Source of the DNA: Naegleria gruberi
Lineage: Eukaryota
Reading direction: 5' to 3' (one strand)
NCBI GenBank assembly: GCA_000004985.1
Contig: GG738894.1
DNA: 64,000 bases
Part shown: positions 25,130 to 48,943 of the stretch, one piece after another
Numbering within the stretch: position 1 is the stretch's first letter
Layout of the letters: each line of letters starts with the position of its first letter
The notes under the pieces: generated by a model
Database searches by the model: none
What the model was told of the DNA's origin: nothing
Seen by the model: only the letters and a program-made list of their open reading frames with translations
Translations under genes and position numbers: made by a program

Positions 25130-25220
25130 GGTGAGTTGGTCGAGTGGTCTAAGACGACACGTTAAGGTATGATTAATACCGTGTTCCGCAAGGGCGTGGG
25201 TTCAAATCCCACACTCATCA
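25130..25220 (+). tRNA. tRNA-Leu (anticodon AAG) with an 11-nt intron at 25168..25178.
   Basis: The acceptor stem pairs GGTGAGT with ACTCATC. The D-arm is GTC/GAGTGGTCTAA/GAC. The anticodon stem pairs ACACG with CGTGT. The loop is TTAAGG|intron|C, which places A-A-G at positions 34-36. An 11-nt long variable arm, TCCGCAAGGGC, is consistent with a type II tRNA. The T-arm is GTGGG/TTCAAAT/CCCAC. The gene is followed directly by gTTTTT at 25222-25226. Confidence 0.85.
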
Positions 25221-26393: not shown

Positions 26394-26467
26394 GCCTTCC
26401 TAGCTCAGTTGGCAGTAGCGCTGTCCTAGTAAGACAGAGGTCTTGGGTTCGATTCCCAAGGGAGGCA
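26394..26467 (+). tRNA. tRNA-Thr (anticodon AGT), without an intron.
   Basis: The acceptor stem pairs GCCTTCC with GGGAGGC. The anticodon stem pairs CTGTC with GACAG, and the loop CTAGTAA places A-G-T at 34-36 with U33 and A37. The T-arm is TTGGG/TTCGATT/CCCAA. It is followed by aaTTTTT at 26470-26474. Confidence 0.9.
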
Positions 26468-26759
26468 AATTTTTAACAGGTTTATTCAACCCACAACAAG
26501 CTAGATTGCAGCACGGGATCCCGCCTAAACTCGGAAATATTTCAACCAATTCTCTAAGAAATCTACCATCTTTCAGCAATTCCACACCATACAATCTTAA
26601 TTGTTCTTCTGGAATTGTTTTGAGAGCCATAATGATTATTTCTCTATCATCTCTGCACTCTAATGGTAACTGATGTAAGGGCTGGGTCACTCCAGACAAA
26701 CTTTCAAGCACTAACTCTCTATCTTGTAATAATTTCTTTGGAAAATGATTGAGAATGTA
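26400..26759 (-). other. In-frame continuation ORF of 120 codons. It encodes further DUF4116-like repeats beyond the single TAG and runs antisense through tRNA-Thr.
   Basis: It is in the same frame as the upstream CDS and reads YILNHFPKKLLQDRELVLESLSGVTQPLHQLPLECRDDREIIIMALKTIPEEQLRLYGVELLKDGRFLRELVEIFP.... It is stop-free until a TAG at 26400-26402, inside the antisense tRNA. Its status is unresolved and it may be an exon, a pseudogene tail or the product of a sequencing error. Confidence 0.35.
26470..26474 (+). terminator. Pol III T-run terminator downstream of tRNA-Thr.
   Basis: TTTTT lies 2 nt after the discriminator. Confidence 0.6.
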
Positions 26760-27924
26760 CTAAGGTTTGCTTTTAGATTTTACCATTCTTGTCAATTCCT
26801 TATTCTTGTATCGCTCGCTTAGTGAATAGTAGGCATGTGGACACACAGATAAAACTGTTTCGACAAATACATTATTGTACACCAGGTCTGAAATTATATT
26901 GGACAAAATTAAGGGTTCAAAAAAGAAAAATGATGGATACTCTACCTTTTGGCATAAAGTAGAAAATATAATATCCAAGAGAGTTATGTTTTGCAACTAG
27001 TTGCAATAGAAAATCAACATTTTTCCACACAATACGCGGAAGATGGGCTATATCACTTTCGCTCCTCGATACACAATTCGTAACAATTTCCAAGTTTGAT
27101 CTCCATATTTCTGGAACTTGTGAAAGAGGTAAATGGCTTTTCGAAAACCTTTTTACAATTTCAAAGTTTTCACAATATTTCTTTGGAAATTGTAAGAAAC
27201 TTTCTGGATTGGCTCGTGTACATTTTTCAATAAAACTGTAATCATTCCTCAATCTTTCAGATAATTTACCAATGAAAGAGGTATTGTATCGTTTAGCTCT
27301 GATAACTATTTCTCCATCATCAAGAAAATCTTCCAAATCCTTATAGGCAACATAGTATTGAAATTTCATCACTTCCAACATGATTTCTCTATCCTTTTTA
27401 AATTGGATTGGTAGAAAACCATAGGGCAGCTGACTCTTAACTGCTCTCAACACAATTCTCCTATCCATTTTCATATTATCTGACAAATATTGATAGGAAG
27501 TAAAATTTGAATTTACAGCTTGGTAAGCAATTTGAAAATCATCACAAAATGCATGACCTTTCGGTAAAAACTGTAGACTAGAACCATTTTTCGAAACAGC
27601 AGCAAGTACCACATCATAATCATTACAAAAATTAGTAAATTTACATAAATAACCGGCCCACGATTTTACAAGTTCCATTGCAACAAATTTTTCATTCAAT
27701 AGCATGGGAGGAATAATTAAACGTCTGATGGCTCTCTTCTTTCGGGATTTTCTAATATTAACTAAAATCATTTGATAATTGACATGAAGAGCTACTGCTT
27801 CTTCAGATTGTTCTTGAATTTTGTCTTGTAATACATTGTAAAGTTTAGAATGATCATTGTGCATTGGCTGACCTGTATTTTCTAAATGTAAAGCAATATC
27901 TGAATAGTGATTGTTGTGAATCAT
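26760..27924 (-). CDS. DUF4116-repeat protein. Supported exons are 26946..27924 and 26784..26887 with a 58-nt intron at 26888..26945. The reading is terminated by TAG at 26760-26762.
   Basis: The ATG at 27922-27924 is in an A-rich context. Repeats of the DUF4116 type are AAVSKNGSSLQFLPKGHAFCDDFQIAYQAV, LRAVKSQLPYGFLPIQFKKDREIMLEVM and others. The donor is ccaaaag|GTAGAG in phase 1 and the acceptor is aatttcag. The downstream exon, DLVYNNVFVETVLSVCPHAYYSLSERYKNKELTRM..., matches the frame of track ORF 26760-26996. Confidence 0.6.
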
Positions 27925-28154: not shown

Positions 28155-28853
28155 TTAATATAATACAAATTGAAAATAATTCTTTGCTTCAAGTAATAAT
28201 TTGTCTAATGGAATAGGATCAAACGAATCATTTGCAATCTTTTTGGGGAAAAGTGAAGACATTTCATCACAATTATGAGAGCTCGAATAGGTCAATCCTG
28301 GCATTCCATAAAATGCTTGAGAGTCGGCATTTCCAAGGTAAAGGAATTCGAATTTGTTAATTAATAAAATGATAATATCAAAATCTAAATCCACTTTGTG
28401 GTAGAGACATATTTTCCCACATTTTCTATATTCGATAGTAAATTGATCCAATCTATCAATATTGTTTTCACTGAAATATAGTGAGTTTGGTTCAAGGAAG
28501 TGAATCTTGTTCACTATTCCAACAAATGAATCGCTTTCTCTTATAAACTCATCCAAAATTTCAATAGCCAGTTTAGAATAGGATTTCTCACATTTTTCAT
28601 CAAGTAGATTATGGCTAGGACCAACTTCCAAACACTCATGATGAGAATCAACAAACAAATGTCTATAATTAATGACTGGCAAATGAGCAAAACATCCCTC
28701 ATTACAAACATGCCTTGCCAGTTTCTTTTGAAGCATTACGAAACTTTCTTTTCCATTATTATTCGAATTAATATTTTCATCATCATCGTCATCATAACTA
28801 ATAATCATCAAATCAGAAAATGGTGATGGCAAATCATCCTGAATTATTAACAT
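28155..28853 (-). CDS. Hypothetical protein of 232 aa.
   Basis: It is a clean ORF with an ATG at 28851-28853. It lies 18 nt from an N run, so its upstream region is unsequenced. Confidence 0.45.
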   Translation of the reverse strand: MLIIQDDLPSPFSDLMIISYDDDDDENINSNNNGKESFVMLQKKLARHVCNEGCFAHLPVINYRHLFVDSHHECLEVGPSHNLLDEKCEKSYSKLAIEILDEFIRESDSFVGIVNKIHFLEPNSLYFSENNIDRLDQFTIEYRKCGKICLYHKVDLDFDIIILLINKFEFLYLGNADSQAFYGMPGLTYSSSHNCDEMSSLFPKKIANDSFDPIPLDKLLLEAKNYFQFVLY

Positions 28854-28870: not shown

Positions 28871-28920
28871 NNNNNNNNNNNNNNNNNNNNNNNNNNNNNN
28901 NNNNNNNNNNNNNNNNNNNN
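28871..28920. other. Assembly gap of 50 N, the conventional placeholder size for an unknown-length gap.
   Basis: A literal run of n. Confidence 1.
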
Positions 28921-28921
28921 C

Positions 28922-29909
28922 GGATAGAGATGGAAATAATATTGTAATAATATTAATCCGTTTAACATGGAATTTTTACATAAATAAGCACTTTTTGGAA
29001 TTTTGCTTTGGCTTAATCAATTTCTGTTTAAGAGATTCCAAATATTCCACATCAAGTTCAATAATATTCTTTAACAGTTTTAAACCCAAATCGGTTCCGC
29101 TTAGTAATCTCACACAATCTAAGAATATTTCTTCCACATTTATGTTAAACTTGGCACTTGTCACAGAGGTATTTAACAATTCATATTGACTAATCTTGTC
29201 ATTCACAACTTGTTTAGCTTTCTCAGTAATTTCCCTCTTTTCTTCCTTCTCTTCTTCTGTGAAATCATCAACCTTATTCAATGCAAAAATTATTGGAATA
29301 CTTTTTAATTGTTCGATTCCTCTAACTCGAGCCATGAATTCCATATGATATCCTAAAGAGCAATCATCTATTGAACTAGGATCTGTCAGAGAGCAAACAA
29401 CTACAATACAATTGGAATTACAAAGGCATTGCTCTTTAAATAAATTACTTTCATACTCCTCATGTCCATCTACGAGAACTCCAAAATTTTGTAAATAATT
29501 GTTTTACTTACAGAAATCGAAAATATTAAATAAATATTGATCTCCACCAATTTCCACATATTTTCTGTAATTATCATCAATTGTTGGGGTGTTGTGTTCA
29601 AGGAAATTTCCCTGAATGAATTGAATAATTAGCGAACTTTTACCTAATTATTTCGAATAGGTTTAATTCAATAATAAACTCACCAACTCCTCCATCTCCA
29701 AGGAGAAGAATCTTAATTTCTTCATCATGATATTCATTTTCATTTCTAGTGATGGGAACTGTACTTAAAAATTGTTTCGTATAAAGTGTTAGAATAATCT
29801 TTCTTCGGAGATTTCCTATTTCCACCATTTGATTTTTAACTTGATCAAATTCTTCTCTGTTTTTCTCTTTAATTCTAACTTGACTTTCGAATAATTTCCA
29901 CCAAATATT
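28922..29909. repeat. Copy 2 of the duplicated segment, identical to 8140..9122. It contains exon 3, exon 2 and part of exon 1 of a second F-box-like/Ras-GTPase gene copy, truncated by the gap.
   Basis: Identity begins 2 nt after the 50-N gap and continues to the first base of the 19-kb gap. The minus-strand ORF 28976-29344 is identical to 8194-8562. Confidence 0.9.
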
Positions 29910-32900
29910 NNNNNNNNNNNNNNNNNNNNNNNNNNNNNNNNNNNNNNNNNNNNNNNNNNNNNNNNNNNNNNNNNNNNNNNNNNNNNNNNNNNNNNNNNNN
30001 NNNNNNNNNNNNNNNNNNNNNNNNNNNNNNNNNNNNNNNNNNNNNNNNNNNNNNNNNNNNNNNNNNNNNNNNNNNNNNNNNNNNNNNNNNNNNNNNNNNN
30101 NNNNNNNNNNNNNNNNNNNNNNNNNNNNNNNNNNNNNNNNNNNNNNNNNNNNNNNNNNNNNNNNNNNNNNNNNNNNNNNNNNNNNNNNNNNNNNNNNNNN
30201 NNNNNNNNNNNNNNNNNNNNNNNNNNNNNNNNNNNNNNNNNNNNNNNNNNNNNNNNNNNNNNNNNNNNNNNNNNNNNNNNNNNNNNNNNNNNNNNNNNNN
30301 NNNNNNNNNNNNNNNNNNNNNNNNNNNNNNNNNNNNNNNNNNNNNNNNNNNNNNNNNNNNNNNNNNNNNNNNNNNNNNNNNNNNNNNNNNNNNNNNNNNN
30401 NNNNNNNNNNNNNNNNNNNNNNNNNNNNNNNNNNNNNNNNNNNNNNNNNNNNNNNNNNNNNNNNNNNNNNNNNNNNNNNNNNNNNNNNNNNNNNNNNNNN
30501 NNNNNNNNNNNNNNNNNNNNNNNNNNNNNNNNNNNNNNNNNNNNNNNNNNNNNNNNNNNNNNNNNNNNNNNNNNNNNNNNNNNNNNNNNNNNNNNNNNNN
30601 NNNNNNNNNNNNNNNNNNNNNNNNNNNNNNNNNNNNNNNNNNNNNNNNNNNNNNNNNNNNNNNNNNNNNNNNNNNNNNNNNNNNNNNNNNNNNNNNNNNN
30701 NNNNNNNNNNNNNNNNNNNNNNNNNNNNNNNNNNNNNNNNNNNNNNNNNNNNNNNNNNNNNNNNNNNNNNNNNNNNNNNNNNNNNNNNNNNNNNNNNNNN
30801 NNNNNNNNNNNNNNNNNNNNNNNNNNNNNNNNNNNNNNNNNNNNNNNNNNNNNNNNNNNNNNNNNNNNNNNNNNNNNNNNNNNNNNNNNNNNNNNNNNNN
30901 NNNNNNNNNNNNNNNNNNNNNNNNNNNNNNNNNNNNNNNNNNNNNNNNNNNNNNNNNNNNNNNNNNNNNNNNNNNNNNNNNNNNNNNNNNNNNNNNNNNN
31001 NNNNNNNNNNNNNNNNNNNNNNNNNNNNNNNNNNNNNNNNNNNNNNNNNNNNNNNNNNNNNNNNNNNNNNNNNNNNNNNNNNNNNNNNNNNNNNNNNNNN
31101 NNNNNNNNNNNNNNNNNNNNNNNNNNNNNNNNNNNNNNNNNNNNNNNNNNNNNNNNNNNNNNNNNNNNNNNNNNNNNNNNNNNNNNNNNNNNNNNNNNNN
31201 NNNNNNNNNNNNNNNNNNNNNNNNNNNNNNNNNNNNNNNNNNNNNNNNNNNNNNNNNNNNNNNNNNNNNNNNNNNNNNNNNNNNNNNNNNNNNNNNNNNN
31301 NNNNNNNNNNNNNNNNNNNNNNNNNNNNNNNNNNNNNNNNNNNNNNNNNNNNNNNNNNNNNNNNNNNNNNNNNNNNNNNNNNNNNNNNNNNNNNNNNNNN
31401 NNNNNNNNNNNNNNNNNNNNNNNNNNNNNNNNNNNNNNNNNNNNNNNNNNNNNNNNNNNNNNNNNNNNNNNNNNNNNNNNNNNNNNNNNNNNNNNNNNNN
31501 NNNNNNNNNNNNNNNNNNNNNNNNNNNNNNNNNNNNNNNNNNNNNNNNNNNNNNNNNNNNNNNNNNNNNNNNNNNNNNNNNNNNNNNNNNNNNNNNNNNN
31601 NNNNNNNNNNNNNNNNNNNNNNNNNNNNNNNNNNNNNNNNNNNNNNNNNNNNNNNNNNNNNNNNNNNNNNNNNNNNNNNNNNNNNNNNNNNNNNNNNNNN
31701 NNNNNNNNNNNNNNNNNNNNNNNNNNNNNNNNNNNNNNNNNNNNNNNNNNNNNNNNNNNNNNNNNNNNNNNNNNNNNNNNNNNNNNNNNNNNNNNNNNNN
31801 NNNNNNNNNNNNNNNNNNNNNNNNNNNNNNNNNNNNNNNNNNNNNNNNNNNNNNNNNNNNNNNNNNNNNNNNNNNNNNNNNNNNNNNNNNNNNNNNNNNN
31901 NNNNNNNNNNNNNNNNNNNNNNNNNNNNNNNNNNNNNNNNNNNNNNNNNNNNNNNNNNNNNNNNNNNNNNNNNNNNNNNNNNNNNNNNNNNNNNNNNNNN
32001 NNNNNNNNNNNNNNNNNNNNNNNNNNNNNNNNNNNNNNNNNNNNNNNNNNNNNNNNNNNNNNNNNNNNNNNNNNNNNNNNNNNNNNNNNNNNNNNNNNNN
32101 NNNNNNNNNNNNNNNNNNNNNNNNNNNNNNNNNNNNNNNNNNNNNNNNNNNNNNNNNNNNNNNNNNNNNNNNNNNNNNNNNNNNNNNNNNNNNNNNNNNN
32201 NNNNNNNNNNNNNNNNNNNNNNNNNNNNNNNNNNNNNNNNNNNNNNNNNNNNNNNNNNNNNNNNNNNNNNNNNNNNNNNNNNNNNNNNNNNNNNNNNNNN
32301 NNNNNNNNNNNNNNNNNNNNNNNNNNNNNNNNNNNNNNNNNNNNNNNNNNNNNNNNNNNNNNNNNNNNNNNNNNNNNNNNNNNNNNNNNNNNNNNNNNNN
32401 NNNNNNNNNNNNNNNNNNNNNNNNNNNNNNNNNNNNNNNNNNNNNNNNNNNNNNNNNNNNNNNNNNNNNNNNNNNNNNNNNNNNNNNNNNNNNNNNNNNN
32501 NNNNNNNNNNNNNNNNNNNNNNNNNNNNNNNNNNNNNNNNNNNNNNNNNNNNNNNNNNNNNNNNNNNNNNNNNNNNNNNNNNNNNNNNNNNNNNNNNNNN
32601 NNNNNNNNNNNNNNNNNNNNNNNNNNNNNNNNNNNNNNNNNNNNNNNNNNNNNNNNNNNNNNNNNNNNNNNNNNNNNNNNNNNNNNNNNNNNNNNNNNNN
32701 NNNNNNNNNNNNNNNNNNNNNNNNNNNNNNNNNNNNNNNNNNNNNNNNNNNNNNNNNNNNNNNNNNNNNNNNNNNNNNNNNNNNNNNNNNNNNNNNNNNN
32801 NNNNNNNNNNNNNNNNNNNNNNNNNNNNNNNNNNNNNNNNNNNNNNNNNNNNNNNNNNNNNNNNNNNNNNNNNNNNNNNNNNNNNNNNNNNNNNNNNNNN

Positions 32901-35900
32901 NNNNNNNNNNNNNNNNNNNNNNNNNNNNNNNNNNNNNNNNNNNNNNNNNNNNNNNNNNNNNNNNNNNNNNNNNNNNNNNNNNNNNNNNNNNNNNNNNNNN
33001 NNNNNNNNNNNNNNNNNNNNNNNNNNNNNNNNNNNNNNNNNNNNNNNNNNNNNNNNNNNNNNNNNNNNNNNNNNNNNNNNNNNNNNNNNNNNNNNNNNNN
33101 NNNNNNNNNNNNNNNNNNNNNNNNNNNNNNNNNNNNNNNNNNNNNNNNNNNNNNNNNNNNNNNNNNNNNNNNNNNNNNNNNNNNNNNNNNNNNNNNNNNN
33201 NNNNNNNNNNNNNNNNNNNNNNNNNNNNNNNNNNNNNNNNNNNNNNNNNNNNNNNNNNNNNNNNNNNNNNNNNNNNNNNNNNNNNNNNNNNNNNNNNNNN
33301 NNNNNNNNNNNNNNNNNNNNNNNNNNNNNNNNNNNNNNNNNNNNNNNNNNNNNNNNNNNNNNNNNNNNNNNNNNNNNNNNNNNNNNNNNNNNNNNNNNNN
33401 NNNNNNNNNNNNNNNNNNNNNNNNNNNNNNNNNNNNNNNNNNNNNNNNNNNNNNNNNNNNNNNNNNNNNNNNNNNNNNNNNNNNNNNNNNNNNNNNNNNN
33501 NNNNNNNNNNNNNNNNNNNNNNNNNNNNNNNNNNNNNNNNNNNNNNNNNNNNNNNNNNNNNNNNNNNNNNNNNNNNNNNNNNNNNNNNNNNNNNNNNNNN
33601 NNNNNNNNNNNNNNNNNNNNNNNNNNNNNNNNNNNNNNNNNNNNNNNNNNNNNNNNNNNNNNNNNNNNNNNNNNNNNNNNNNNNNNNNNNNNNNNNNNNN
33701 NNNNNNNNNNNNNNNNNNNNNNNNNNNNNNNNNNNNNNNNNNNNNNNNNNNNNNNNNNNNNNNNNNNNNNNNNNNNNNNNNNNNNNNNNNNNNNNNNNNN
33801 NNNNNNNNNNNNNNNNNNNNNNNNNNNNNNNNNNNNNNNNNNNNNNNNNNNNNNNNNNNNNNNNNNNNNNNNNNNNNNNNNNNNNNNNNNNNNNNNNNNN
33901 NNNNNNNNNNNNNNNNNNNNNNNNNNNNNNNNNNNNNNNNNNNNNNNNNNNNNNNNNNNNNNNNNNNNNNNNNNNNNNNNNNNNNNNNNNNNNNNNNNNN
34001 NNNNNNNNNNNNNNNNNNNNNNNNNNNNNNNNNNNNNNNNNNNNNNNNNNNNNNNNNNNNNNNNNNNNNNNNNNNNNNNNNNNNNNNNNNNNNNNNNNNN
34101 NNNNNNNNNNNNNNNNNNNNNNNNNNNNNNNNNNNNNNNNNNNNNNNNNNNNNNNNNNNNNNNNNNNNNNNNNNNNNNNNNNNNNNNNNNNNNNNNNNNN
34201 NNNNNNNNNNNNNNNNNNNNNNNNNNNNNNNNNNNNNNNNNNNNNNNNNNNNNNNNNNNNNNNNNNNNNNNNNNNNNNNNNNNNNNNNNNNNNNNNNNNN
34301 NNNNNNNNNNNNNNNNNNNNNNNNNNNNNNNNNNNNNNNNNNNNNNNNNNNNNNNNNNNNNNNNNNNNNNNNNNNNNNNNNNNNNNNNNNNNNNNNNNNN
34401 NNNNNNNNNNNNNNNNNNNNNNNNNNNNNNNNNNNNNNNNNNNNNNNNNNNNNNNNNNNNNNNNNNNNNNNNNNNNNNNNNNNNNNNNNNNNNNNNNNNN
34501 NNNNNNNNNNNNNNNNNNNNNNNNNNNNNNNNNNNNNNNNNNNNNNNNNNNNNNNNNNNNNNNNNNNNNNNNNNNNNNNNNNNNNNNNNNNNNNNNNNNN
34601 NNNNNNNNNNNNNNNNNNNNNNNNNNNNNNNNNNNNNNNNNNNNNNNNNNNNNNNNNNNNNNNNNNNNNNNNNNNNNNNNNNNNNNNNNNNNNNNNNNNN
34701 NNNNNNNNNNNNNNNNNNNNNNNNNNNNNNNNNNNNNNNNNNNNNNNNNNNNNNNNNNNNNNNNNNNNNNNNNNNNNNNNNNNNNNNNNNNNNNNNNNNN
34801 NNNNNNNNNNNNNNNNNNNNNNNNNNNNNNNNNNNNNNNNNNNNNNNNNNNNNNNNNNNNNNNNNNNNNNNNNNNNNNNNNNNNNNNNNNNNNNNNNNNN
34901 NNNNNNNNNNNNNNNNNNNNNNNNNNNNNNNNNNNNNNNNNNNNNNNNNNNNNNNNNNNNNNNNNNNNNNNNNNNNNNNNNNNNNNNNNNNNNNNNNNNN
35001 NNNNNNNNNNNNNNNNNNNNNNNNNNNNNNNNNNNNNNNNNNNNNNNNNNNNNNNNNNNNNNNNNNNNNNNNNNNNNNNNNNNNNNNNNNNNNNNNNNNN
35101 NNNNNNNNNNNNNNNNNNNNNNNNNNNNNNNNNNNNNNNNNNNNNNNNNNNNNNNNNNNNNNNNNNNNNNNNNNNNNNNNNNNNNNNNNNNNNNNNNNNN
35201 NNNNNNNNNNNNNNNNNNNNNNNNNNNNNNNNNNNNNNNNNNNNNNNNNNNNNNNNNNNNNNNNNNNNNNNNNNNNNNNNNNNNNNNNNNNNNNNNNNNN
35301 NNNNNNNNNNNNNNNNNNNNNNNNNNNNNNNNNNNNNNNNNNNNNNNNNNNNNNNNNNNNNNNNNNNNNNNNNNNNNNNNNNNNNNNNNNNNNNNNNNNN
35401 NNNNNNNNNNNNNNNNNNNNNNNNNNNNNNNNNNNNNNNNNNNNNNNNNNNNNNNNNNNNNNNNNNNNNNNNNNNNNNNNNNNNNNNNNNNNNNNNNNNN
35501 NNNNNNNNNNNNNNNNNNNNNNNNNNNNNNNNNNNNNNNNNNNNNNNNNNNNNNNNNNNNNNNNNNNNNNNNNNNNNNNNNNNNNNNNNNNNNNNNNNNN
35601 NNNNNNNNNNNNNNNNNNNNNNNNNNNNNNNNNNNNNNNNNNNNNNNNNNNNNNNNNNNNNNNNNNNNNNNNNNNNNNNNNNNNNNNNNNNNNNNNNNNN
35701 NNNNNNNNNNNNNNNNNNNNNNNNNNNNNNNNNNNNNNNNNNNNNNNNNNNNNNNNNNNNNNNNNNNNNNNNNNNNNNNNNNNNNNNNNNNNNNNNNNNN
35801 NNNNNNNNNNNNNNNNNNNNNNNNNNNNNNNNNNNNNNNNNNNNNNNNNNNNNNNNNNNNNNNNNNNNNNNNNNNNNNNNNNNNNNNNNNNNNNNNNNNN

Positions 35901-38900
35901 NNNNNNNNNNNNNNNNNNNNNNNNNNNNNNNNNNNNNNNNNNNNNNNNNNNNNNNNNNNNNNNNNNNNNNNNNNNNNNNNNNNNNNNNNNNNNNNNNNNN
36001 NNNNNNNNNNNNNNNNNNNNNNNNNNNNNNNNNNNNNNNNNNNNNNNNNNNNNNNNNNNNNNNNNNNNNNNNNNNNNNNNNNNNNNNNNNNNNNNNNNNN
36101 NNNNNNNNNNNNNNNNNNNNNNNNNNNNNNNNNNNNNNNNNNNNNNNNNNNNNNNNNNNNNNNNNNNNNNNNNNNNNNNNNNNNNNNNNNNNNNNNNNNN
36201 NNNNNNNNNNNNNNNNNNNNNNNNNNNNNNNNNNNNNNNNNNNNNNNNNNNNNNNNNNNNNNNNNNNNNNNNNNNNNNNNNNNNNNNNNNNNNNNNNNNN
36301 NNNNNNNNNNNNNNNNNNNNNNNNNNNNNNNNNNNNNNNNNNNNNNNNNNNNNNNNNNNNNNNNNNNNNNNNNNNNNNNNNNNNNNNNNNNNNNNNNNNN
36401 NNNNNNNNNNNNNNNNNNNNNNNNNNNNNNNNNNNNNNNNNNNNNNNNNNNNNNNNNNNNNNNNNNNNNNNNNNNNNNNNNNNNNNNNNNNNNNNNNNNN
36501 NNNNNNNNNNNNNNNNNNNNNNNNNNNNNNNNNNNNNNNNNNNNNNNNNNNNNNNNNNNNNNNNNNNNNNNNNNNNNNNNNNNNNNNNNNNNNNNNNNNN
36601 NNNNNNNNNNNNNNNNNNNNNNNNNNNNNNNNNNNNNNNNNNNNNNNNNNNNNNNNNNNNNNNNNNNNNNNNNNNNNNNNNNNNNNNNNNNNNNNNNNNN
36701 NNNNNNNNNNNNNNNNNNNNNNNNNNNNNNNNNNNNNNNNNNNNNNNNNNNNNNNNNNNNNNNNNNNNNNNNNNNNNNNNNNNNNNNNNNNNNNNNNNNN
36801 NNNNNNNNNNNNNNNNNNNNNNNNNNNNNNNNNNNNNNNNNNNNNNNNNNNNNNNNNNNNNNNNNNNNNNNNNNNNNNNNNNNNNNNNNNNNNNNNNNNN
36901 NNNNNNNNNNNNNNNNNNNNNNNNNNNNNNNNNNNNNNNNNNNNNNNNNNNNNNNNNNNNNNNNNNNNNNNNNNNNNNNNNNNNNNNNNNNNNNNNNNNN
37001 NNNNNNNNNNNNNNNNNNNNNNNNNNNNNNNNNNNNNNNNNNNNNNNNNNNNNNNNNNNNNNNNNNNNNNNNNNNNNNNNNNNNNNNNNNNNNNNNNNNN
37101 NNNNNNNNNNNNNNNNNNNNNNNNNNNNNNNNNNNNNNNNNNNNNNNNNNNNNNNNNNNNNNNNNNNNNNNNNNNNNNNNNNNNNNNNNNNNNNNNNNNN
37201 NNNNNNNNNNNNNNNNNNNNNNNNNNNNNNNNNNNNNNNNNNNNNNNNNNNNNNNNNNNNNNNNNNNNNNNNNNNNNNNNNNNNNNNNNNNNNNNNNNNN
37301 NNNNNNNNNNNNNNNNNNNNNNNNNNNNNNNNNNNNNNNNNNNNNNNNNNNNNNNNNNNNNNNNNNNNNNNNNNNNNNNNNNNNNNNNNNNNNNNNNNNN
37401 NNNNNNNNNNNNNNNNNNNNNNNNNNNNNNNNNNNNNNNNNNNNNNNNNNNNNNNNNNNNNNNNNNNNNNNNNNNNNNNNNNNNNNNNNNNNNNNNNNNN
37501 NNNNNNNNNNNNNNNNNNNNNNNNNNNNNNNNNNNNNNNNNNNNNNNNNNNNNNNNNNNNNNNNNNNNNNNNNNNNNNNNNNNNNNNNNNNNNNNNNNNN
37601 NNNNNNNNNNNNNNNNNNNNNNNNNNNNNNNNNNNNNNNNNNNNNNNNNNNNNNNNNNNNNNNNNNNNNNNNNNNNNNNNNNNNNNNNNNNNNNNNNNNN
37701 NNNNNNNNNNNNNNNNNNNNNNNNNNNNNNNNNNNNNNNNNNNNNNNNNNNNNNNNNNNNNNNNNNNNNNNNNNNNNNNNNNNNNNNNNNNNNNNNNNNN
37801 NNNNNNNNNNNNNNNNNNNNNNNNNNNNNNNNNNNNNNNNNNNNNNNNNNNNNNNNNNNNNNNNNNNNNNNNNNNNNNNNNNNNNNNNNNNNNNNNNNNN
37901 NNNNNNNNNNNNNNNNNNNNNNNNNNNNNNNNNNNNNNNNNNNNNNNNNNNNNNNNNNNNNNNNNNNNNNNNNNNNNNNNNNNNNNNNNNNNNNNNNNNN
38001 NNNNNNNNNNNNNNNNNNNNNNNNNNNNNNNNNNNNNNNNNNNNNNNNNNNNNNNNNNNNNNNNNNNNNNNNNNNNNNNNNNNNNNNNNNNNNNNNNNNN
38101 NNNNNNNNNNNNNNNNNNNNNNNNNNNNNNNNNNNNNNNNNNNNNNNNNNNNNNNNNNNNNNNNNNNNNNNNNNNNNNNNNNNNNNNNNNNNNNNNNNNN
38201 NNNNNNNNNNNNNNNNNNNNNNNNNNNNNNNNNNNNNNNNNNNNNNNNNNNNNNNNNNNNNNNNNNNNNNNNNNNNNNNNNNNNNNNNNNNNNNNNNNNN
38301 NNNNNNNNNNNNNNNNNNNNNNNNNNNNNNNNNNNNNNNNNNNNNNNNNNNNNNNNNNNNNNNNNNNNNNNNNNNNNNNNNNNNNNNNNNNNNNNNNNNN
38401 NNNNNNNNNNNNNNNNNNNNNNNNNNNNNNNNNNNNNNNNNNNNNNNNNNNNNNNNNNNNNNNNNNNNNNNNNNNNNNNNNNNNNNNNNNNNNNNNNNNN
38501 NNNNNNNNNNNNNNNNNNNNNNNNNNNNNNNNNNNNNNNNNNNNNNNNNNNNNNNNNNNNNNNNNNNNNNNNNNNNNNNNNNNNNNNNNNNNNNNNNNNN
38601 NNNNNNNNNNNNNNNNNNNNNNNNNNNNNNNNNNNNNNNNNNNNNNNNNNNNNNNNNNNNNNNNNNNNNNNNNNNNNNNNNNNNNNNNNNNNNNNNNNNN
38701 NNNNNNNNNNNNNNNNNNNNNNNNNNNNNNNNNNNNNNNNNNNNNNNNNNNNNNNNNNNNNNNNNNNNNNNNNNNNNNNNNNNNNNNNNNNNNNNNNNNN
38801 NNNNNNNNNNNNNNNNNNNNNNNNNNNNNNNNNNNNNNNNNNNNNNNNNNNNNNNNNNNNNNNNNNNNNNNNNNNNNNNNNNNNNNNNNNNNNNNNNNNN

Positions 38901-41900
38901 NNNNNNNNNNNNNNNNNNNNNNNNNNNNNNNNNNNNNNNNNNNNNNNNNNNNNNNNNNNNNNNNNNNNNNNNNNNNNNNNNNNNNNNNNNNNNNNNNNNN
39001 NNNNNNNNNNNNNNNNNNNNNNNNNNNNNNNNNNNNNNNNNNNNNNNNNNNNNNNNNNNNNNNNNNNNNNNNNNNNNNNNNNNNNNNNNNNNNNNNNNNN
39101 NNNNNNNNNNNNNNNNNNNNNNNNNNNNNNNNNNNNNNNNNNNNNNNNNNNNNNNNNNNNNNNNNNNNNNNNNNNNNNNNNNNNNNNNNNNNNNNNNNNN
39201 NNNNNNNNNNNNNNNNNNNNNNNNNNNNNNNNNNNNNNNNNNNNNNNNNNNNNNNNNNNNNNNNNNNNNNNNNNNNNNNNNNNNNNNNNNNNNNNNNNNN
39301 NNNNNNNNNNNNNNNNNNNNNNNNNNNNNNNNNNNNNNNNNNNNNNNNNNNNNNNNNNNNNNNNNNNNNNNNNNNNNNNNNNNNNNNNNNNNNNNNNNNN
39401 NNNNNNNNNNNNNNNNNNNNNNNNNNNNNNNNNNNNNNNNNNNNNNNNNNNNNNNNNNNNNNNNNNNNNNNNNNNNNNNNNNNNNNNNNNNNNNNNNNNN
39501 NNNNNNNNNNNNNNNNNNNNNNNNNNNNNNNNNNNNNNNNNNNNNNNNNNNNNNNNNNNNNNNNNNNNNNNNNNNNNNNNNNNNNNNNNNNNNNNNNNNN
39601 NNNNNNNNNNNNNNNNNNNNNNNNNNNNNNNNNNNNNNNNNNNNNNNNNNNNNNNNNNNNNNNNNNNNNNNNNNNNNNNNNNNNNNNNNNNNNNNNNNNN
39701 NNNNNNNNNNNNNNNNNNNNNNNNNNNNNNNNNNNNNNNNNNNNNNNNNNNNNNNNNNNNNNNNNNNNNNNNNNNNNNNNNNNNNNNNNNNNNNNNNNNN
39801 NNNNNNNNNNNNNNNNNNNNNNNNNNNNNNNNNNNNNNNNNNNNNNNNNNNNNNNNNNNNNNNNNNNNNNNNNNNNNNNNNNNNNNNNNNNNNNNNNNNN
39901 NNNNNNNNNNNNNNNNNNNNNNNNNNNNNNNNNNNNNNNNNNNNNNNNNNNNNNNNNNNNNNNNNNNNNNNNNNNNNNNNNNNNNNNNNNNNNNNNNNNN
40001 NNNNNNNNNNNNNNNNNNNNNNNNNNNNNNNNNNNNNNNNNNNNNNNNNNNNNNNNNNNNNNNNNNNNNNNNNNNNNNNNNNNNNNNNNNNNNNNNNNNN
40101 NNNNNNNNNNNNNNNNNNNNNNNNNNNNNNNNNNNNNNNNNNNNNNNNNNNNNNNNNNNNNNNNNNNNNNNNNNNNNNNNNNNNNNNNNNNNNNNNNNNN
40201 NNNNNNNNNNNNNNNNNNNNNNNNNNNNNNNNNNNNNNNNNNNNNNNNNNNNNNNNNNNNNNNNNNNNNNNNNNNNNNNNNNNNNNNNNNNNNNNNNNNN
40301 NNNNNNNNNNNNNNNNNNNNNNNNNNNNNNNNNNNNNNNNNNNNNNNNNNNNNNNNNNNNNNNNNNNNNNNNNNNNNNNNNNNNNNNNNNNNNNNNNNNN
40401 NNNNNNNNNNNNNNNNNNNNNNNNNNNNNNNNNNNNNNNNNNNNNNNNNNNNNNNNNNNNNNNNNNNNNNNNNNNNNNNNNNNNNNNNNNNNNNNNNNNN
40501 NNNNNNNNNNNNNNNNNNNNNNNNNNNNNNNNNNNNNNNNNNNNNNNNNNNNNNNNNNNNNNNNNNNNNNNNNNNNNNNNNNNNNNNNNNNNNNNNNNNN
40601 NNNNNNNNNNNNNNNNNNNNNNNNNNNNNNNNNNNNNNNNNNNNNNNNNNNNNNNNNNNNNNNNNNNNNNNNNNNNNNNNNNNNNNNNNNNNNNNNNNNN
40701 NNNNNNNNNNNNNNNNNNNNNNNNNNNNNNNNNNNNNNNNNNNNNNNNNNNNNNNNNNNNNNNNNNNNNNNNNNNNNNNNNNNNNNNNNNNNNNNNNNNN
40801 NNNNNNNNNNNNNNNNNNNNNNNNNNNNNNNNNNNNNNNNNNNNNNNNNNNNNNNNNNNNNNNNNNNNNNNNNNNNNNNNNNNNNNNNNNNNNNNNNNNN
40901 NNNNNNNNNNNNNNNNNNNNNNNNNNNNNNNNNNNNNNNNNNNNNNNNNNNNNNNNNNNNNNNNNNNNNNNNNNNNNNNNNNNNNNNNNNNNNNNNNNNN
41001 NNNNNNNNNNNNNNNNNNNNNNNNNNNNNNNNNNNNNNNNNNNNNNNNNNNNNNNNNNNNNNNNNNNNNNNNNNNNNNNNNNNNNNNNNNNNNNNNNNNN
41101 NNNNNNNNNNNNNNNNNNNNNNNNNNNNNNNNNNNNNNNNNNNNNNNNNNNNNNNNNNNNNNNNNNNNNNNNNNNNNNNNNNNNNNNNNNNNNNNNNNNN
41201 NNNNNNNNNNNNNNNNNNNNNNNNNNNNNNNNNNNNNNNNNNNNNNNNNNNNNNNNNNNNNNNNNNNNNNNNNNNNNNNNNNNNNNNNNNNNNNNNNNNN
41301 NNNNNNNNNNNNNNNNNNNNNNNNNNNNNNNNNNNNNNNNNNNNNNNNNNNNNNNNNNNNNNNNNNNNNNNNNNNNNNNNNNNNNNNNNNNNNNNNNNNN
41401 NNNNNNNNNNNNNNNNNNNNNNNNNNNNNNNNNNNNNNNNNNNNNNNNNNNNNNNNNNNNNNNNNNNNNNNNNNNNNNNNNNNNNNNNNNNNNNNNNNNN
41501 NNNNNNNNNNNNNNNNNNNNNNNNNNNNNNNNNNNNNNNNNNNNNNNNNNNNNNNNNNNNNNNNNNNNNNNNNNNNNNNNNNNNNNNNNNNNNNNNNNNN
41601 NNNNNNNNNNNNNNNNNNNNNNNNNNNNNNNNNNNNNNNNNNNNNNNNNNNNNNNNNNNNNNNNNNNNNNNNNNNNNNNNNNNNNNNNNNNNNNNNNNNN
41701 NNNNNNNNNNNNNNNNNNNNNNNNNNNNNNNNNNNNNNNNNNNNNNNNNNNNNNNNNNNNNNNNNNNNNNNNNNNNNNNNNNNNNNNNNNNNNNNNNNNN
41801 NNNNNNNNNNNNNNNNNNNNNNNNNNNNNNNNNNNNNNNNNNNNNNNNNNNNNNNNNNNNNNNNNNNNNNNNNNNNNNNNNNNNNNNNNNNNNNNNNNNN

Positions 41901-44900
41901 NNNNNNNNNNNNNNNNNNNNNNNNNNNNNNNNNNNNNNNNNNNNNNNNNNNNNNNNNNNNNNNNNNNNNNNNNNNNNNNNNNNNNNNNNNNNNNNNNNNN
42001 NNNNNNNNNNNNNNNNNNNNNNNNNNNNNNNNNNNNNNNNNNNNNNNNNNNNNNNNNNNNNNNNNNNNNNNNNNNNNNNNNNNNNNNNNNNNNNNNNNNN
42101 NNNNNNNNNNNNNNNNNNNNNNNNNNNNNNNNNNNNNNNNNNNNNNNNNNNNNNNNNNNNNNNNNNNNNNNNNNNNNNNNNNNNNNNNNNNNNNNNNNNN
42201 NNNNNNNNNNNNNNNNNNNNNNNNNNNNNNNNNNNNNNNNNNNNNNNNNNNNNNNNNNNNNNNNNNNNNNNNNNNNNNNNNNNNNNNNNNNNNNNNNNNN
42301 NNNNNNNNNNNNNNNNNNNNNNNNNNNNNNNNNNNNNNNNNNNNNNNNNNNNNNNNNNNNNNNNNNNNNNNNNNNNNNNNNNNNNNNNNNNNNNNNNNNN
42401 NNNNNNNNNNNNNNNNNNNNNNNNNNNNNNNNNNNNNNNNNNNNNNNNNNNNNNNNNNNNNNNNNNNNNNNNNNNNNNNNNNNNNNNNNNNNNNNNNNNN
42501 NNNNNNNNNNNNNNNNNNNNNNNNNNNNNNNNNNNNNNNNNNNNNNNNNNNNNNNNNNNNNNNNNNNNNNNNNNNNNNNNNNNNNNNNNNNNNNNNNNNN
42601 NNNNNNNNNNNNNNNNNNNNNNNNNNNNNNNNNNNNNNNNNNNNNNNNNNNNNNNNNNNNNNNNNNNNNNNNNNNNNNNNNNNNNNNNNNNNNNNNNNNN
42701 NNNNNNNNNNNNNNNNNNNNNNNNNNNNNNNNNNNNNNNNNNNNNNNNNNNNNNNNNNNNNNNNNNNNNNNNNNNNNNNNNNNNNNNNNNNNNNNNNNNN
42801 NNNNNNNNNNNNNNNNNNNNNNNNNNNNNNNNNNNNNNNNNNNNNNNNNNNNNNNNNNNNNNNNNNNNNNNNNNNNNNNNNNNNNNNNNNNNNNNNNNNN
42901 NNNNNNNNNNNNNNNNNNNNNNNNNNNNNNNNNNNNNNNNNNNNNNNNNNNNNNNNNNNNNNNNNNNNNNNNNNNNNNNNNNNNNNNNNNNNNNNNNNNN
43001 NNNNNNNNNNNNNNNNNNNNNNNNNNNNNNNNNNNNNNNNNNNNNNNNNNNNNNNNNNNNNNNNNNNNNNNNNNNNNNNNNNNNNNNNNNNNNNNNNNNN
43101 NNNNNNNNNNNNNNNNNNNNNNNNNNNNNNNNNNNNNNNNNNNNNNNNNNNNNNNNNNNNNNNNNNNNNNNNNNNNNNNNNNNNNNNNNNNNNNNNNNNN
43201 NNNNNNNNNNNNNNNNNNNNNNNNNNNNNNNNNNNNNNNNNNNNNNNNNNNNNNNNNNNNNNNNNNNNNNNNNNNNNNNNNNNNNNNNNNNNNNNNNNNN
43301 NNNNNNNNNNNNNNNNNNNNNNNNNNNNNNNNNNNNNNNNNNNNNNNNNNNNNNNNNNNNNNNNNNNNNNNNNNNNNNNNNNNNNNNNNNNNNNNNNNNN
43401 NNNNNNNNNNNNNNNNNNNNNNNNNNNNNNNNNNNNNNNNNNNNNNNNNNNNNNNNNNNNNNNNNNNNNNNNNNNNNNNNNNNNNNNNNNNNNNNNNNNN
43501 NNNNNNNNNNNNNNNNNNNNNNNNNNNNNNNNNNNNNNNNNNNNNNNNNNNNNNNNNNNNNNNNNNNNNNNNNNNNNNNNNNNNNNNNNNNNNNNNNNNN
43601 NNNNNNNNNNNNNNNNNNNNNNNNNNNNNNNNNNNNNNNNNNNNNNNNNNNNNNNNNNNNNNNNNNNNNNNNNNNNNNNNNNNNNNNNNNNNNNNNNNNN
43701 NNNNNNNNNNNNNNNNNNNNNNNNNNNNNNNNNNNNNNNNNNNNNNNNNNNNNNNNNNNNNNNNNNNNNNNNNNNNNNNNNNNNNNNNNNNNNNNNNNNN
43801 NNNNNNNNNNNNNNNNNNNNNNNNNNNNNNNNNNNNNNNNNNNNNNNNNNNNNNNNNNNNNNNNNNNNNNNNNNNNNNNNNNNNNNNNNNNNNNNNNNNN
43901 NNNNNNNNNNNNNNNNNNNNNNNNNNNNNNNNNNNNNNNNNNNNNNNNNNNNNNNNNNNNNNNNNNNNNNNNNNNNNNNNNNNNNNNNNNNNNNNNNNNN
44001 NNNNNNNNNNNNNNNNNNNNNNNNNNNNNNNNNNNNNNNNNNNNNNNNNNNNNNNNNNNNNNNNNNNNNNNNNNNNNNNNNNNNNNNNNNNNNNNNNNNN
44101 NNNNNNNNNNNNNNNNNNNNNNNNNNNNNNNNNNNNNNNNNNNNNNNNNNNNNNNNNNNNNNNNNNNNNNNNNNNNNNNNNNNNNNNNNNNNNNNNNNNN
44201 NNNNNNNNNNNNNNNNNNNNNNNNNNNNNNNNNNNNNNNNNNNNNNNNNNNNNNNNNNNNNNNNNNNNNNNNNNNNNNNNNNNNNNNNNNNNNNNNNNNN
44301 NNNNNNNNNNNNNNNNNNNNNNNNNNNNNNNNNNNNNNNNNNNNNNNNNNNNNNNNNNNNNNNNNNNNNNNNNNNNNNNNNNNNNNNNNNNNNNNNNNNN
44401 NNNNNNNNNNNNNNNNNNNNNNNNNNNNNNNNNNNNNNNNNNNNNNNNNNNNNNNNNNNNNNNNNNNNNNNNNNNNNNNNNNNNNNNNNNNNNNNNNNNN
44501 NNNNNNNNNNNNNNNNNNNNNNNNNNNNNNNNNNNNNNNNNNNNNNNNNNNNNNNNNNNNNNNNNNNNNNNNNNNNNNNNNNNNNNNNNNNNNNNNNNNN
44601 NNNNNNNNNNNNNNNNNNNNNNNNNNNNNNNNNNNNNNNNNNNNNNNNNNNNNNNNNNNNNNNNNNNNNNNNNNNNNNNNNNNNNNNNNNNNNNNNNNNN
44701 NNNNNNNNNNNNNNNNNNNNNNNNNNNNNNNNNNNNNNNNNNNNNNNNNNNNNNNNNNNNNNNNNNNNNNNNNNNNNNNNNNNNNNNNNNNNNNNNNNNN
44801 NNNNNNNNNNNNNNNNNNNNNNNNNNNNNNNNNNNNNNNNNNNNNNNNNNNNNNNNNNNNNNNNNNNNNNNNNNNNNNNNNNNNNNNNNNNNNNNNNNNN

Positions 44901-47900
44901 NNNNNNNNNNNNNNNNNNNNNNNNNNNNNNNNNNNNNNNNNNNNNNNNNNNNNNNNNNNNNNNNNNNNNNNNNNNNNNNNNNNNNNNNNNNNNNNNNNNN
45001 NNNNNNNNNNNNNNNNNNNNNNNNNNNNNNNNNNNNNNNNNNNNNNNNNNNNNNNNNNNNNNNNNNNNNNNNNNNNNNNNNNNNNNNNNNNNNNNNNNNN
45101 NNNNNNNNNNNNNNNNNNNNNNNNNNNNNNNNNNNNNNNNNNNNNNNNNNNNNNNNNNNNNNNNNNNNNNNNNNNNNNNNNNNNNNNNNNNNNNNNNNNN
45201 NNNNNNNNNNNNNNNNNNNNNNNNNNNNNNNNNNNNNNNNNNNNNNNNNNNNNNNNNNNNNNNNNNNNNNNNNNNNNNNNNNNNNNNNNNNNNNNNNNNN
45301 NNNNNNNNNNNNNNNNNNNNNNNNNNNNNNNNNNNNNNNNNNNNNNNNNNNNNNNNNNNNNNNNNNNNNNNNNNNNNNNNNNNNNNNNNNNNNNNNNNNN
45401 NNNNNNNNNNNNNNNNNNNNNNNNNNNNNNNNNNNNNNNNNNNNNNNNNNNNNNNNNNNNNNNNNNNNNNNNNNNNNNNNNNNNNNNNNNNNNNNNNNNN
45501 NNNNNNNNNNNNNNNNNNNNNNNNNNNNNNNNNNNNNNNNNNNNNNNNNNNNNNNNNNNNNNNNNNNNNNNNNNNNNNNNNNNNNNNNNNNNNNNNNNNN
45601 NNNNNNNNNNNNNNNNNNNNNNNNNNNNNNNNNNNNNNNNNNNNNNNNNNNNNNNNNNNNNNNNNNNNNNNNNNNNNNNNNNNNNNNNNNNNNNNNNNNN
45701 NNNNNNNNNNNNNNNNNNNNNNNNNNNNNNNNNNNNNNNNNNNNNNNNNNNNNNNNNNNNNNNNNNNNNNNNNNNNNNNNNNNNNNNNNNNNNNNNNNNN
45801 NNNNNNNNNNNNNNNNNNNNNNNNNNNNNNNNNNNNNNNNNNNNNNNNNNNNNNNNNNNNNNNNNNNNNNNNNNNNNNNNNNNNNNNNNNNNNNNNNNNN
45901 NNNNNNNNNNNNNNNNNNNNNNNNNNNNNNNNNNNNNNNNNNNNNNNNNNNNNNNNNNNNNNNNNNNNNNNNNNNNNNNNNNNNNNNNNNNNNNNNNNNN
46001 NNNNNNNNNNNNNNNNNNNNNNNNNNNNNNNNNNNNNNNNNNNNNNNNNNNNNNNNNNNNNNNNNNNNNNNNNNNNNNNNNNNNNNNNNNNNNNNNNNNN
46101 NNNNNNNNNNNNNNNNNNNNNNNNNNNNNNNNNNNNNNNNNNNNNNNNNNNNNNNNNNNNNNNNNNNNNNNNNNNNNNNNNNNNNNNNNNNNNNNNNNNN
46201 NNNNNNNNNNNNNNNNNNNNNNNNNNNNNNNNNNNNNNNNNNNNNNNNNNNNNNNNNNNNNNNNNNNNNNNNNNNNNNNNNNNNNNNNNNNNNNNNNNNN
46301 NNNNNNNNNNNNNNNNNNNNNNNNNNNNNNNNNNNNNNNNNNNNNNNNNNNNNNNNNNNNNNNNNNNNNNNNNNNNNNNNNNNNNNNNNNNNNNNNNNNN
46401 NNNNNNNNNNNNNNNNNNNNNNNNNNNNNNNNNNNNNNNNNNNNNNNNNNNNNNNNNNNNNNNNNNNNNNNNNNNNNNNNNNNNNNNNNNNNNNNNNNNN
46501 NNNNNNNNNNNNNNNNNNNNNNNNNNNNNNNNNNNNNNNNNNNNNNNNNNNNNNNNNNNNNNNNNNNNNNNNNNNNNNNNNNNNNNNNNNNNNNNNNNNN
46601 NNNNNNNNNNNNNNNNNNNNNNNNNNNNNNNNNNNNNNNNNNNNNNNNNNNNNNNNNNNNNNNNNNNNNNNNNNNNNNNNNNNNNNNNNNNNNNNNNNNN
46701 NNNNNNNNNNNNNNNNNNNNNNNNNNNNNNNNNNNNNNNNNNNNNNNNNNNNNNNNNNNNNNNNNNNNNNNNNNNNNNNNNNNNNNNNNNNNNNNNNNNN
46801 NNNNNNNNNNNNNNNNNNNNNNNNNNNNNNNNNNNNNNNNNNNNNNNNNNNNNNNNNNNNNNNNNNNNNNNNNNNNNNNNNNNNNNNNNNNNNNNNNNNN
46901 NNNNNNNNNNNNNNNNNNNNNNNNNNNNNNNNNNNNNNNNNNNNNNNNNNNNNNNNNNNNNNNNNNNNNNNNNNNNNNNNNNNNNNNNNNNNNNNNNNNN
47001 NNNNNNNNNNNNNNNNNNNNNNNNNNNNNNNNNNNNNNNNNNNNNNNNNNNNNNNNNNNNNNNNNNNNNNNNNNNNNNNNNNNNNNNNNNNNNNNNNNNN
47101 NNNNNNNNNNNNNNNNNNNNNNNNNNNNNNNNNNNNNNNNNNNNNNNNNNNNNNNNNNNNNNNNNNNNNNNNNNNNNNNNNNNNNNNNNNNNNNNNNNNN
47201 NNNNNNNNNNNNNNNNNNNNNNNNNNNNNNNNNNNNNNNNNNNNNNNNNNNNNNNNNNNNNNNNNNNNNNNNNNNNNNNNNNNNNNNNNNNNNNNNNNNN
47301 NNNNNNNNNNNNNNNNNNNNNNNNNNNNNNNNNNNNNNNNNNNNNNNNNNNNNNNNNNNNNNNNNNNNNNNNNNNNNNNNNNNNNNNNNNNNNNNNNNNN
47401 NNNNNNNNNNNNNNNNNNNNNNNNNNNNNNNNNNNNNNNNNNNNNNNNNNNNNNNNNNNNNNNNNNNNNNNNNNNNNNNNNNNNNNNNNNNNNNNNNNNN
47501 NNNNNNNNNNNNNNNNNNNNNNNNNNNNNNNNNNNNNNNNNNNNNNNNNNNNNNNNNNNNNNNNNNNNNNNNNNNNNNNNNNNNNNNNNNNNNNNNNNNN
47601 NNNNNNNNNNNNNNNNNNNNNNNNNNNNNNNNNNNNNNNNNNNNNNNNNNNNNNNNNNNNNNNNNNNNNNNNNNNNNNNNNNNNNNNNNNNNNNNNNNNN
47701 NNNNNNNNNNNNNNNNNNNNNNNNNNNNNNNNNNNNNNNNNNNNNNNNNNNNNNNNNNNNNNNNNNNNNNNNNNNNNNNNNNNNNNNNNNNNNNNNNNNN
47801 NNNNNNNNNNNNNNNNNNNNNNNNNNNNNNNNNNNNNNNNNNNNNNNNNNNNNNNNNNNNNNNNNNNNNNNNNNNNNNNNNNNNNNNNNNNNNNNNNNNN

Positions 47901-48943
47901 NNNNNNNNNNNNNNNNNNNNNNNNNNNNNNNNNNNNNNNNNNNNNNNNNNNNNNNNNNNNNNNNNNNNNNNNNNNNNNNNNNNNNNNNNNNNNNNNNNNN
48001 NNNNNNNNNNNNNNNNNNNNNNNNNNNNNNNNNNNNNNNNNNNNNNNNNNNNNNNNNNNNNNNNNNNNNNNNNNNNNNNNNNNNNNNNNNNNNNNNNNNN
48101 NNNNNNNNNNNNNNNNNNNNNNNNNNNNNNNNNNNNNNNNNNNNNNNNNNNNNNNNNNNNNNNNNNNNNNNNNNNNNNNNNNNNNNNNNNNNNNNNNNNN
48201 NNNNNNNNNNNNNNNNNNNNNNNNNNNNNNNNNNNNNNNNNNNNNNNNNNNNNNNNNNNNNNNNNNNNNNNNNNNNNNNNNNNNNNNNNNNNNNNNNNNN
48301 NNNNNNNNNNNNNNNNNNNNNNNNNNNNNNNNNNNNNNNNNNNNNNNNNNNNNNNNNNNNNNNNNNNNNNNNNNNNNNNNNNNNNNNNNNNNNNNNNNNN
48401 NNNNNNNNNNNNNNNNNNNNNNNNNNNNNNNNNNNNNNNNNNNNNNNNNNNNNNNNNNNNNNNNNNNNNNNNNNNNNNNNNNNNNNNNNNNNNNNNNNNN
48501 NNNNNNNNNNNNNNNNNNNNNNNNNNNNNNNNNNNNNNNNNNNNNNNNNNNNNNNNNNNNNNNNNNNNNNNNNNNNNNNNNNNNNNNNNNNNNNNNNNNN
48601 NNNNNNNNNNNNNNNNNNNNNNNNNNNNNNNNNNNNNNNNNNNNNNNNNNNNNNNNNNNNNNNNNNNNNNNNNNNNNNNNNNNNNNNNNNNNNNNNNNNN
48701 NNNNNNNNNNNNNNNNNNNNNNNNNNNNNNNNNNNNNNNNNNNNNNNNNNNNNNNNNNNNNNNNNNNNNNNNNNNNNNNNNNNNNNNNNNNNNNNNNNNN
48801 NNNNNNNNNNNNNNNNNNNNNNNNNNNNNNNNNNNNNNNNNNNNNNNNNNNNNNNNNNNNNNNNNNNNNNNNNNNNNNNNNNNNNNNNNNNNNNNNNNNN
48901 NNNNNNNNNNNNNNNNNNNNNNNNNNNNNNNNNNNNNNNNNNN
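29910..48943. other. Assembly gap of 19,034 N. Its size is presumably a scaffolding estimate.
   Basis: A literal run of n. The 6476-aa ORF in the supplied track (29640-49070) consists of X residues across this gap and is not real. Confidence 1.

Follow-up and report, generated by a model that had tools for sequence, protein, structure and literature searches.

A probable recent nonsense change in a DUF4116-repeat gene of Naegleria gruberi NEG-M, convergent with a tRNA-Thr gene

On the minus strand of a 64,000-nt stretch of Naegleria gruberi contig GG738894.1 (assembly GCA_000004985.1; the window below means this whole stretch), a reading frame with DUF4116-type repeats meets a single in-frame TAG and then stays open until it ends inside a tRNA gene on the opposite strand. 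The locus raises the question of how this stop is to be understood. A sequence-only reading had left four options, namely a miscalled base, a recent nonsense mutation, an unusual intron, and a protein-coding sequence overlapping a Pol III gene. From the comparisons described below, the gene of strain NEG-M is probably a two-exon DUF4116 gene that carries a recent TGG-to-TAG nonsense change, with a coding relic and a chance-open tail behind it.

The first exon of the gene, NAEGRDRAFT_72014, spans 26946..27924 on the minus strand and begins with the ATG at 27924. The assignment comes from a protein match to the unspliced ORF and from Pfam, where exon 1 scored 108.4 bits for DUF4116; the exon ends with G26946, which opens a split codon. 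The public protein XP_002672970.1 is an exact match to the unspliced 335-aa ORF from 27924 to 26917. This public model runs into a 58-nt interval and stops at TGA 26919-26917, nine codons past the GT at 26945. It is likely to be wrong at its 3' end, where it lacks both the likely 58-nt intron and all of exon 2. The supported exon that had been placed before the TAG does exist as an exon 2 frame in the sequence, whereas the public annotation has no such exon. Upstream lies a eukaryotic porin gene, NAEGRDRAFT_56305 (exact protein match). The exact protein matches put the window on a scaffold of 499,907 bp in the NEG-M reference. The G+C content of the window is about 33%, and its long ORFs, up to 1066 aa, contain no in-frame TAG, indicating that the standard code is used. 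A ciliate-type code with TAG as Gln had been prompted by the AT-rich sequence and a 24-nt GT..AG interval at the stop, and was rejected on the Naegleria gruberi source and the long TAG-free ORFs.

A close relative was traced via the 90%-identity cluster of the 335-aa protein, which holds two further members. It is represented by contigs L001 (2760 bp, ENA) and L002 (2047 bp, Logan), both from metagenome run ERR1078381, which together make up one independent comparator, without an outgroup. The two contigs are one residue apart in the 335-aa ORF (A82V between P0003 and P0002), which suggests a polymorphism in the sampled Naegleria population. Nothing was found in a literature search on the metagenome project, PRJEB11402. 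The full protein and exon 2 by itself were each used to search for homologues, and both searches led back only to this relative, apart from paralogues no more than 34% identical; judged by these searches, NAEGRDRAFT_72014 is without a close orthologue outside the N. gruberi complex. A scan of JGI metagenomes for a third orthologue by which the indels could be polarised gave 406 pattern matches, none of which was confirmed.

The interval between the two exons is probably a real intron of 58 nt with GT..AG borders (GTAGAG...TTTCAG), located at 26888..26945 on the minus strand. Its excision joins the 335-aa ORF in frame to DLVYNNVFVETVLSVCPHAYYSLSERYKNKELTRMVKSKSKP. Both the GT and the AG are kept in the relative, which is about 98% identical, and within the interval each flanking reading frame of the relative contains a stop. 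The alignment with paralogue P0008 is ungapped across the junction of exon 1 and exon 2, and a weak DUF4116 match over the junction was detected in the spliced version only (17.1 bits, against none for the unspliced). The spliced full-length protein of the relative scored 136 bits for DUF4116, compared with 108 for exon 1 alone. Boundaries, frame and conservation in the relative are those of a spliceosomal intron. The interval was also the most diverged part of the region relative to the close relative, at 3 of 58 sites, a value that is not significant. By eye, the GTAGAG donor appeared weak beside the GTAAGT or GTGAGT donors of likely introns elsewhere in the window, which are an impression only, the splice consensus drawn from ORF pairs being too noisy without transcripts.

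The part of exon 2 that would be translated in NEG-M (…DLVYNN…ELTRMVKSKSKP) lies at 26763..26887 on the minus strand and is 97.6% identical to the relative. Read on this strand, the frame ends in MVKSKSKP before TAG 26762-26760, as had been described, and continues for 119 sense codons (26759-26403). The run is thus long, as claimed, at one codon fewer than the 120 first counted. At the local composition, calculation and shuffles put the probability of so long a stop-free run at about 6e-5 per frame, which bears out the view that it is unlikely to have arisen by chance. The 119-aa stretch matched Pfam DUF4116 with 28.9 bits (E=8.4e-7), above the gathering score of 24.9 bits. DUF4116-type repeats do occur behind the TAG, but only the first 79 of the 119 codons are coding in the relative. 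These 79 codons, about three repeats (YILNHFPKKLLQDRELVLESL…ELVEIFPSLG; 26523..26759, minus strand), are probably former coding sequence, as judged from Pfam and from colinearity with the intact ORF of the relative. The other 40 codons, at 26403..26522 on the minus strand, are frameshifted with respect to the relative and appear to be open by chance; neither a Pfam search nor an HMM of the 25-residue repeat detected family similarity in them. They end at TAG 26402-26400, within the opposite-strand tRNA-Thr gene, where the terminus of the run had been placed.

The relative and the window share about 98% identity over 2.5 kb. At the position of the TAG (26760..26762, minus strand), both L001 and L002 carry TGG (Trp), the difference lying at window base 26761. 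The frame of the relative is unbroken from the intron acceptor onwards; it forms a 146-codon ORF, which a gene caller also predicted as 146 aa, and it ends with a TAA. This TAA corresponds to window positions 26484-26482, is out of frame in NEG-M and lies 15 nt before the 3' end of the tRNA. The relative has 18 extra in-frame nucleotides between 26590 and 26589 and 2 nt fewer in the G run at 26522-26520. Over the 40-codon tail, this 2-nt indel and one of 1 nt at 26477 separate NEG-M from the frame of the relative. The stop of NEG-M thus stands opposite a sense codon within an intact ORF of a close relative, as in a premature stop. The comparison with an orthologue that the sequence-only reading had proposed gave a direct answer: the C-terminal repeats are present in the relative and end at the TAA in front of the tRNA.

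The divergence between NEG-M and the relative was 1.8% behind the TAG and 1.7% in exon 1. In exon 1, 17 sites differed, of which 12 were non-synonymous and 5 synonymous, corresponding to a dN/dS of about 0.6. This points to weak constraint, under which a tolerated truncation is plausible. The coding relic behind the TAG showed few substitutions, 3 synonymous and 2 non-synonymous, plus the in-frame 18-nt indel. Since the divergence behind the TAG is no higher than that in exon 1, the stop, if real, is recent.

Alignment with the DUF4116 family (PF13475) covered the disputed positions. All three scores, for exon 1 (108.4 bits), the stretch behind the TAG (28.9 bits) and the spliced protein of the relative (136 bits), are above the gathering cut-off, and a tandem periodicity of about 25 residues runs colinear with other members over the disputed sites. 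The consensus of 42 repeats is D-R-E-I-V-L-x-A-V-K-x-N-G-x-A-L-x-Y-A-S-x-x-L-K, and W recurs at positions 13-14 of the 25-residue repeat. The eight residues around the TAG site (SKSKPW) align with the repeat cores KSKGW and KQNGW of distant members. The segment VISKSKPWCILNHFPKKLLQDRELVLESL aligns with AVKSKGWALEYASEESRKDREIVIEAL of paralogue P0008 (762 aa), and VKSKSKP(W), encoded by the 24-nt stretch, pairs with AVKSKGW of the same protein. By blastp and Smith-Waterman, the P0008 alignment leads from exon 1 past the junction and the TAG position as far as the end, with two 1-residue gaps in 124 columns, placing W on W. The residues at the site match the canonical repeat core, indicating that the site is coding and not intron. 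NAEGRDRAFT_72014 resembles known DUF4116 proteins in its repeats of about 25 residues, its motif and Pfam scores well over the cut-off, but its repeats are far more degenerate than those of P0008 and P0009 (136 versus 440-460 bits). DUF4116 arrays fold as an alpha-solenoid in a contact-based model (PMC8078820).

At 26394..26467 on the plus strand, convergent with the DUF4116 gene, lies a tRNA-Thr(AGU) gene. It was recognised by ARAGORN and scored 53.9 bits with Rfam RF00005, against a gathering score of 29; the cloverleaf carries an AGU anticodon, and the sequence is identical in the relative. A T5 run at 26470-26474 is presumably its Pol III terminator. An AATAAA hexamer (26486-26481) contains the stop codon of the relative; the distance to the 3' end of the tRNA-Thr gene is 15 nt. 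With such tight convergent packing, a DUF4116-gene transcript whose 3' UTR exceeds about 15 nt would extend antisense over the tRNA. A second tRNA was found at 25130-25220 on the plus strand (Rfam, 47.4 bits); ARAGORN did not name it; its variable arm is long and its anticodon loop carries an insertion. Inspected by eye, the sequence suggests a tRNA-Leu(AAG) interrupted by an intron of some 11 nt, with a T5 run behind it.

Could a very short in-frame intron remove the TAG in NEG-M, so that the downstream repeats are translated? GT..AG pairs do flank the stop, giving candidates of 24 nt (26783-26760), 48 nt (26783-26736) and 96 nt (26855-26760), all multiples of three; of the two intervals proposed earlier, the shorter had the right length, and the longer measures 96 nt, not about 97. 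The G-to-A change itself makes the AG at 26761-26760, and Pfam hardly separates the 24-nt-spliced version from read-through (36.0 versus 36.3 bits). However, the relative has GG in place of the AG shared by the 24-nt and 96-nt candidates, and its ORF simply continues through the interval, indicating that neither is a conserved intron. The 24-nt interval itself (GTAAAATCTAAAAGCAAACCTTAG; 26760..26783, minus strand) codes for a canonical stretch of the repeat, conserved W included, and is best read as coding sequence; conserved splice sites and non-coding content are both missing there. Deletion of 24 or 48 nt also breaks the 25-residue periodicity. The repeat HMM built from the 42 canonical repeats was too weak to split the splice models (all 8-9 bits), and pairwise Smith-Waterman scores were used in its place. 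Eight family members were compared in this way: with none of them did either deletion model (24 nt or 48 nt) outscore read-through with W, which was clearly ahead for three (102 versus 93/90, 88 versus 72/66 and 81 versus 70/66). Introns of Paramecium are about 25 nt long. The 24-nt GT..AG interval is like the very short stop-bearing introns of that ciliate in being a multiple of three with an in-frame stop, a resemblance only; here the organism is a Naegleria, the relative lacks the acceptor, and the interval has its homologues in coding repeat sequence. The N. gruberi intron average has been reported as 203 bp, and a Naegleria fowleri study set a minimum intron length of 30 bp for read mapping, taken from predicted genes (PMC8296547); the 24-nt interval is below this minimum. 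An intron of this kind is therefore very improbable, and the unusual-intron option did not hold up. Hardly any weight was given to the possibility that the G-to-A change, having made an AG 24 nt after GTAAAA, founded a micro-intron in NEG-M (24 nt, or 48 nt to 26736) that would rescue the frame and yield a tail antisense to the tRNA gene.

An error in the NEG-M reference, with G as the true base at 26761, a TGG codon and an intact gene, is unlikely. The TGG of the relative would fit such an error, as would the divergence behind the TAG, which is not raised and includes 3 synonymous changes among its 5 substitutions. The assembly has flaws in this neighbourhood: within 2-3 kb of the site there are gaps, among them one of 50 N at a distance of 2.1 kb, and a duplicated 988-bp contig that looks misplaced. 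On the other hand, with about 2% of sites differing between the two genomes, a true difference should be far likelier a priori. Even with the G restored, the NEG-M frame would still pass the stop of the relative and run for 41 codons over the tRNA antisense because of the 2-nt indel, which resembles a second lesion. No W-bearing ORF derived from NEG-M is on record: exact look-ups of eight conceivable NEG-M products (spliced, read-through with W, and fragment ORFs) returned none. The reference base at 26761 is probably correct, though the site may be heterozygous. A point against the nonsense reading is that the protein collection yielded no transcript-derived ORF of NAEGRDRAFT_72014. Read-through or recoding of the TAG, which would give a full-length protein with a tail antisense to tRNA-Thr and a true overlap of protein-coding and Pol III genes, agrees with a frame that is open for 119 codons and stops inside the tRNA. 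It is nevertheless highly implausible given the window ORFs of up to 1066 aa without in-frame TAG and the standard code, the end of the relative's ORF before the tRNA, and a 40-codon tail that has no family similarity and, owing to indels of 2 nt and 1 nt, is out of step with the frame of the relative. The frame is not conserved over the tRNA, and the suggested coding/Pol III overlap was not borne out; by the alignment with the relative, the apparent overlap is a by-product of the 2-nt indel behind the premature stop. There is almost no chance that the TAG is the original stop and the downstream frame a chance ORF that never coded. Only the public annotation, in which the gene ends even earlier, speaks for it, against the DUF4116 match over the gathering score behind the TAG, the intact and longer ORF of the relative and the chance probability of about 6e-5.

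The recent nonsense change, one of the four original options, is what the evidence favours: the codon is TGG and the ORF intact in the relative, and Trp recurs at this place in distant members. The intact form, as in the relative, would be a protein of about 466 aa ending at the TAA 15 nt before the convergent tRNA-Thr gene. One G-to-A transition at window base 26761 would have turned a repeat-core Trp codon, TGG, into TAG (W369*). The direction was presumably from TGG to TAG, given the need for a functional ancestor and the family consensus. The NEG-M protein would then end at 368 aa, without its 3 to 3.5 terminal repeats. The TAG belongs to the final exon, 3' of the only intron and with no intron downstream, so the mRNA is not expected to be a target of exon-junction-dependent decay; it probably escapes and the truncated protein is made. 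DUF4116 solenoid arrays presumably tolerate the loss of terminal repeats. The 79 codons behind the TAG would be untranslated relic coding sequence, too young to have acquired stops. The 40 further codons would be open by chance, the 2-nt indel carrying the dead frame past the original TAA and over the 3' flank and the tRNA antisense. No translation antisense to the tRNA would take place.

The NEG-M gene is similar to strain-specific nonsense alleles and young (unitary) pseudogenes in that a point change turned a sense codon into a stop at a conserved position, the sequence downstream is still coding-like, a relative is intact and purifying selection is weak. It differs from these in that only the last fifth is truncated, in the last exon. 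With a truncation of this extent and position, the gene may still work as a shorter repeat array. RNA-seq data of N. gruberi are on record as PRJEB23822 (PMC6142364).

Several other features of the window were observed. A 988-bp piece at 28922-29909, between N runs at 28871-28920 (50 N) and 29910-48943 (19,034 N), repeats 8140-9127 with 100% identity; a 122-aa GTPase-like ORF is part of the shared sequence. It looks like a small contig misplaced in the gap, or a collapsed or duplicated piece of the assembly. Beside the 50-N gap, the ORF at 28155-28853 on the minus strand is NAEGRDRAFT_72015 (exact protein match), whose 232-aa model starts at an internal Met. The orthologue in the relative, P0007, is longer at the N-terminus by 40 residues (MARTKQTRRGNK...) and has 272 aa in total; the assembly gap has probably truncated the NEG-M model. 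Inside the ORF at 1109-2257, a direct repeat (1628-1791 versus 1715-1877) shows about 85% identity at an offset of about 87 nt.

Taken together, the locus most likely shows an ordinary premature stop, specific to the strain, in a repeat gene that evolves fast and whose public model is incomplete. A new intron type, recoding and a protein/tRNA gene overlap are rejected. The value of the finding lies mainly in curation: the 3' end of the public NAEGRDRAFT_72014 model needs the intron and exon 2, and the reference strain appears to hold a W369* allele, where a close relative has the gene intact. The locus also calls for caution, in that an open stretch following a stop codon can consist of a young relic and a chance-open frameshifted tail, even where it traverses a tRNA gene. 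A long stop-free run need not mean recoding, a tiny intron or a gene overlap. The convergent packing of the DUF4116 gene and the tRNA-Thr gene is of mild interest with regard to how Naegleria transcribes its genes and forms 3' ends.
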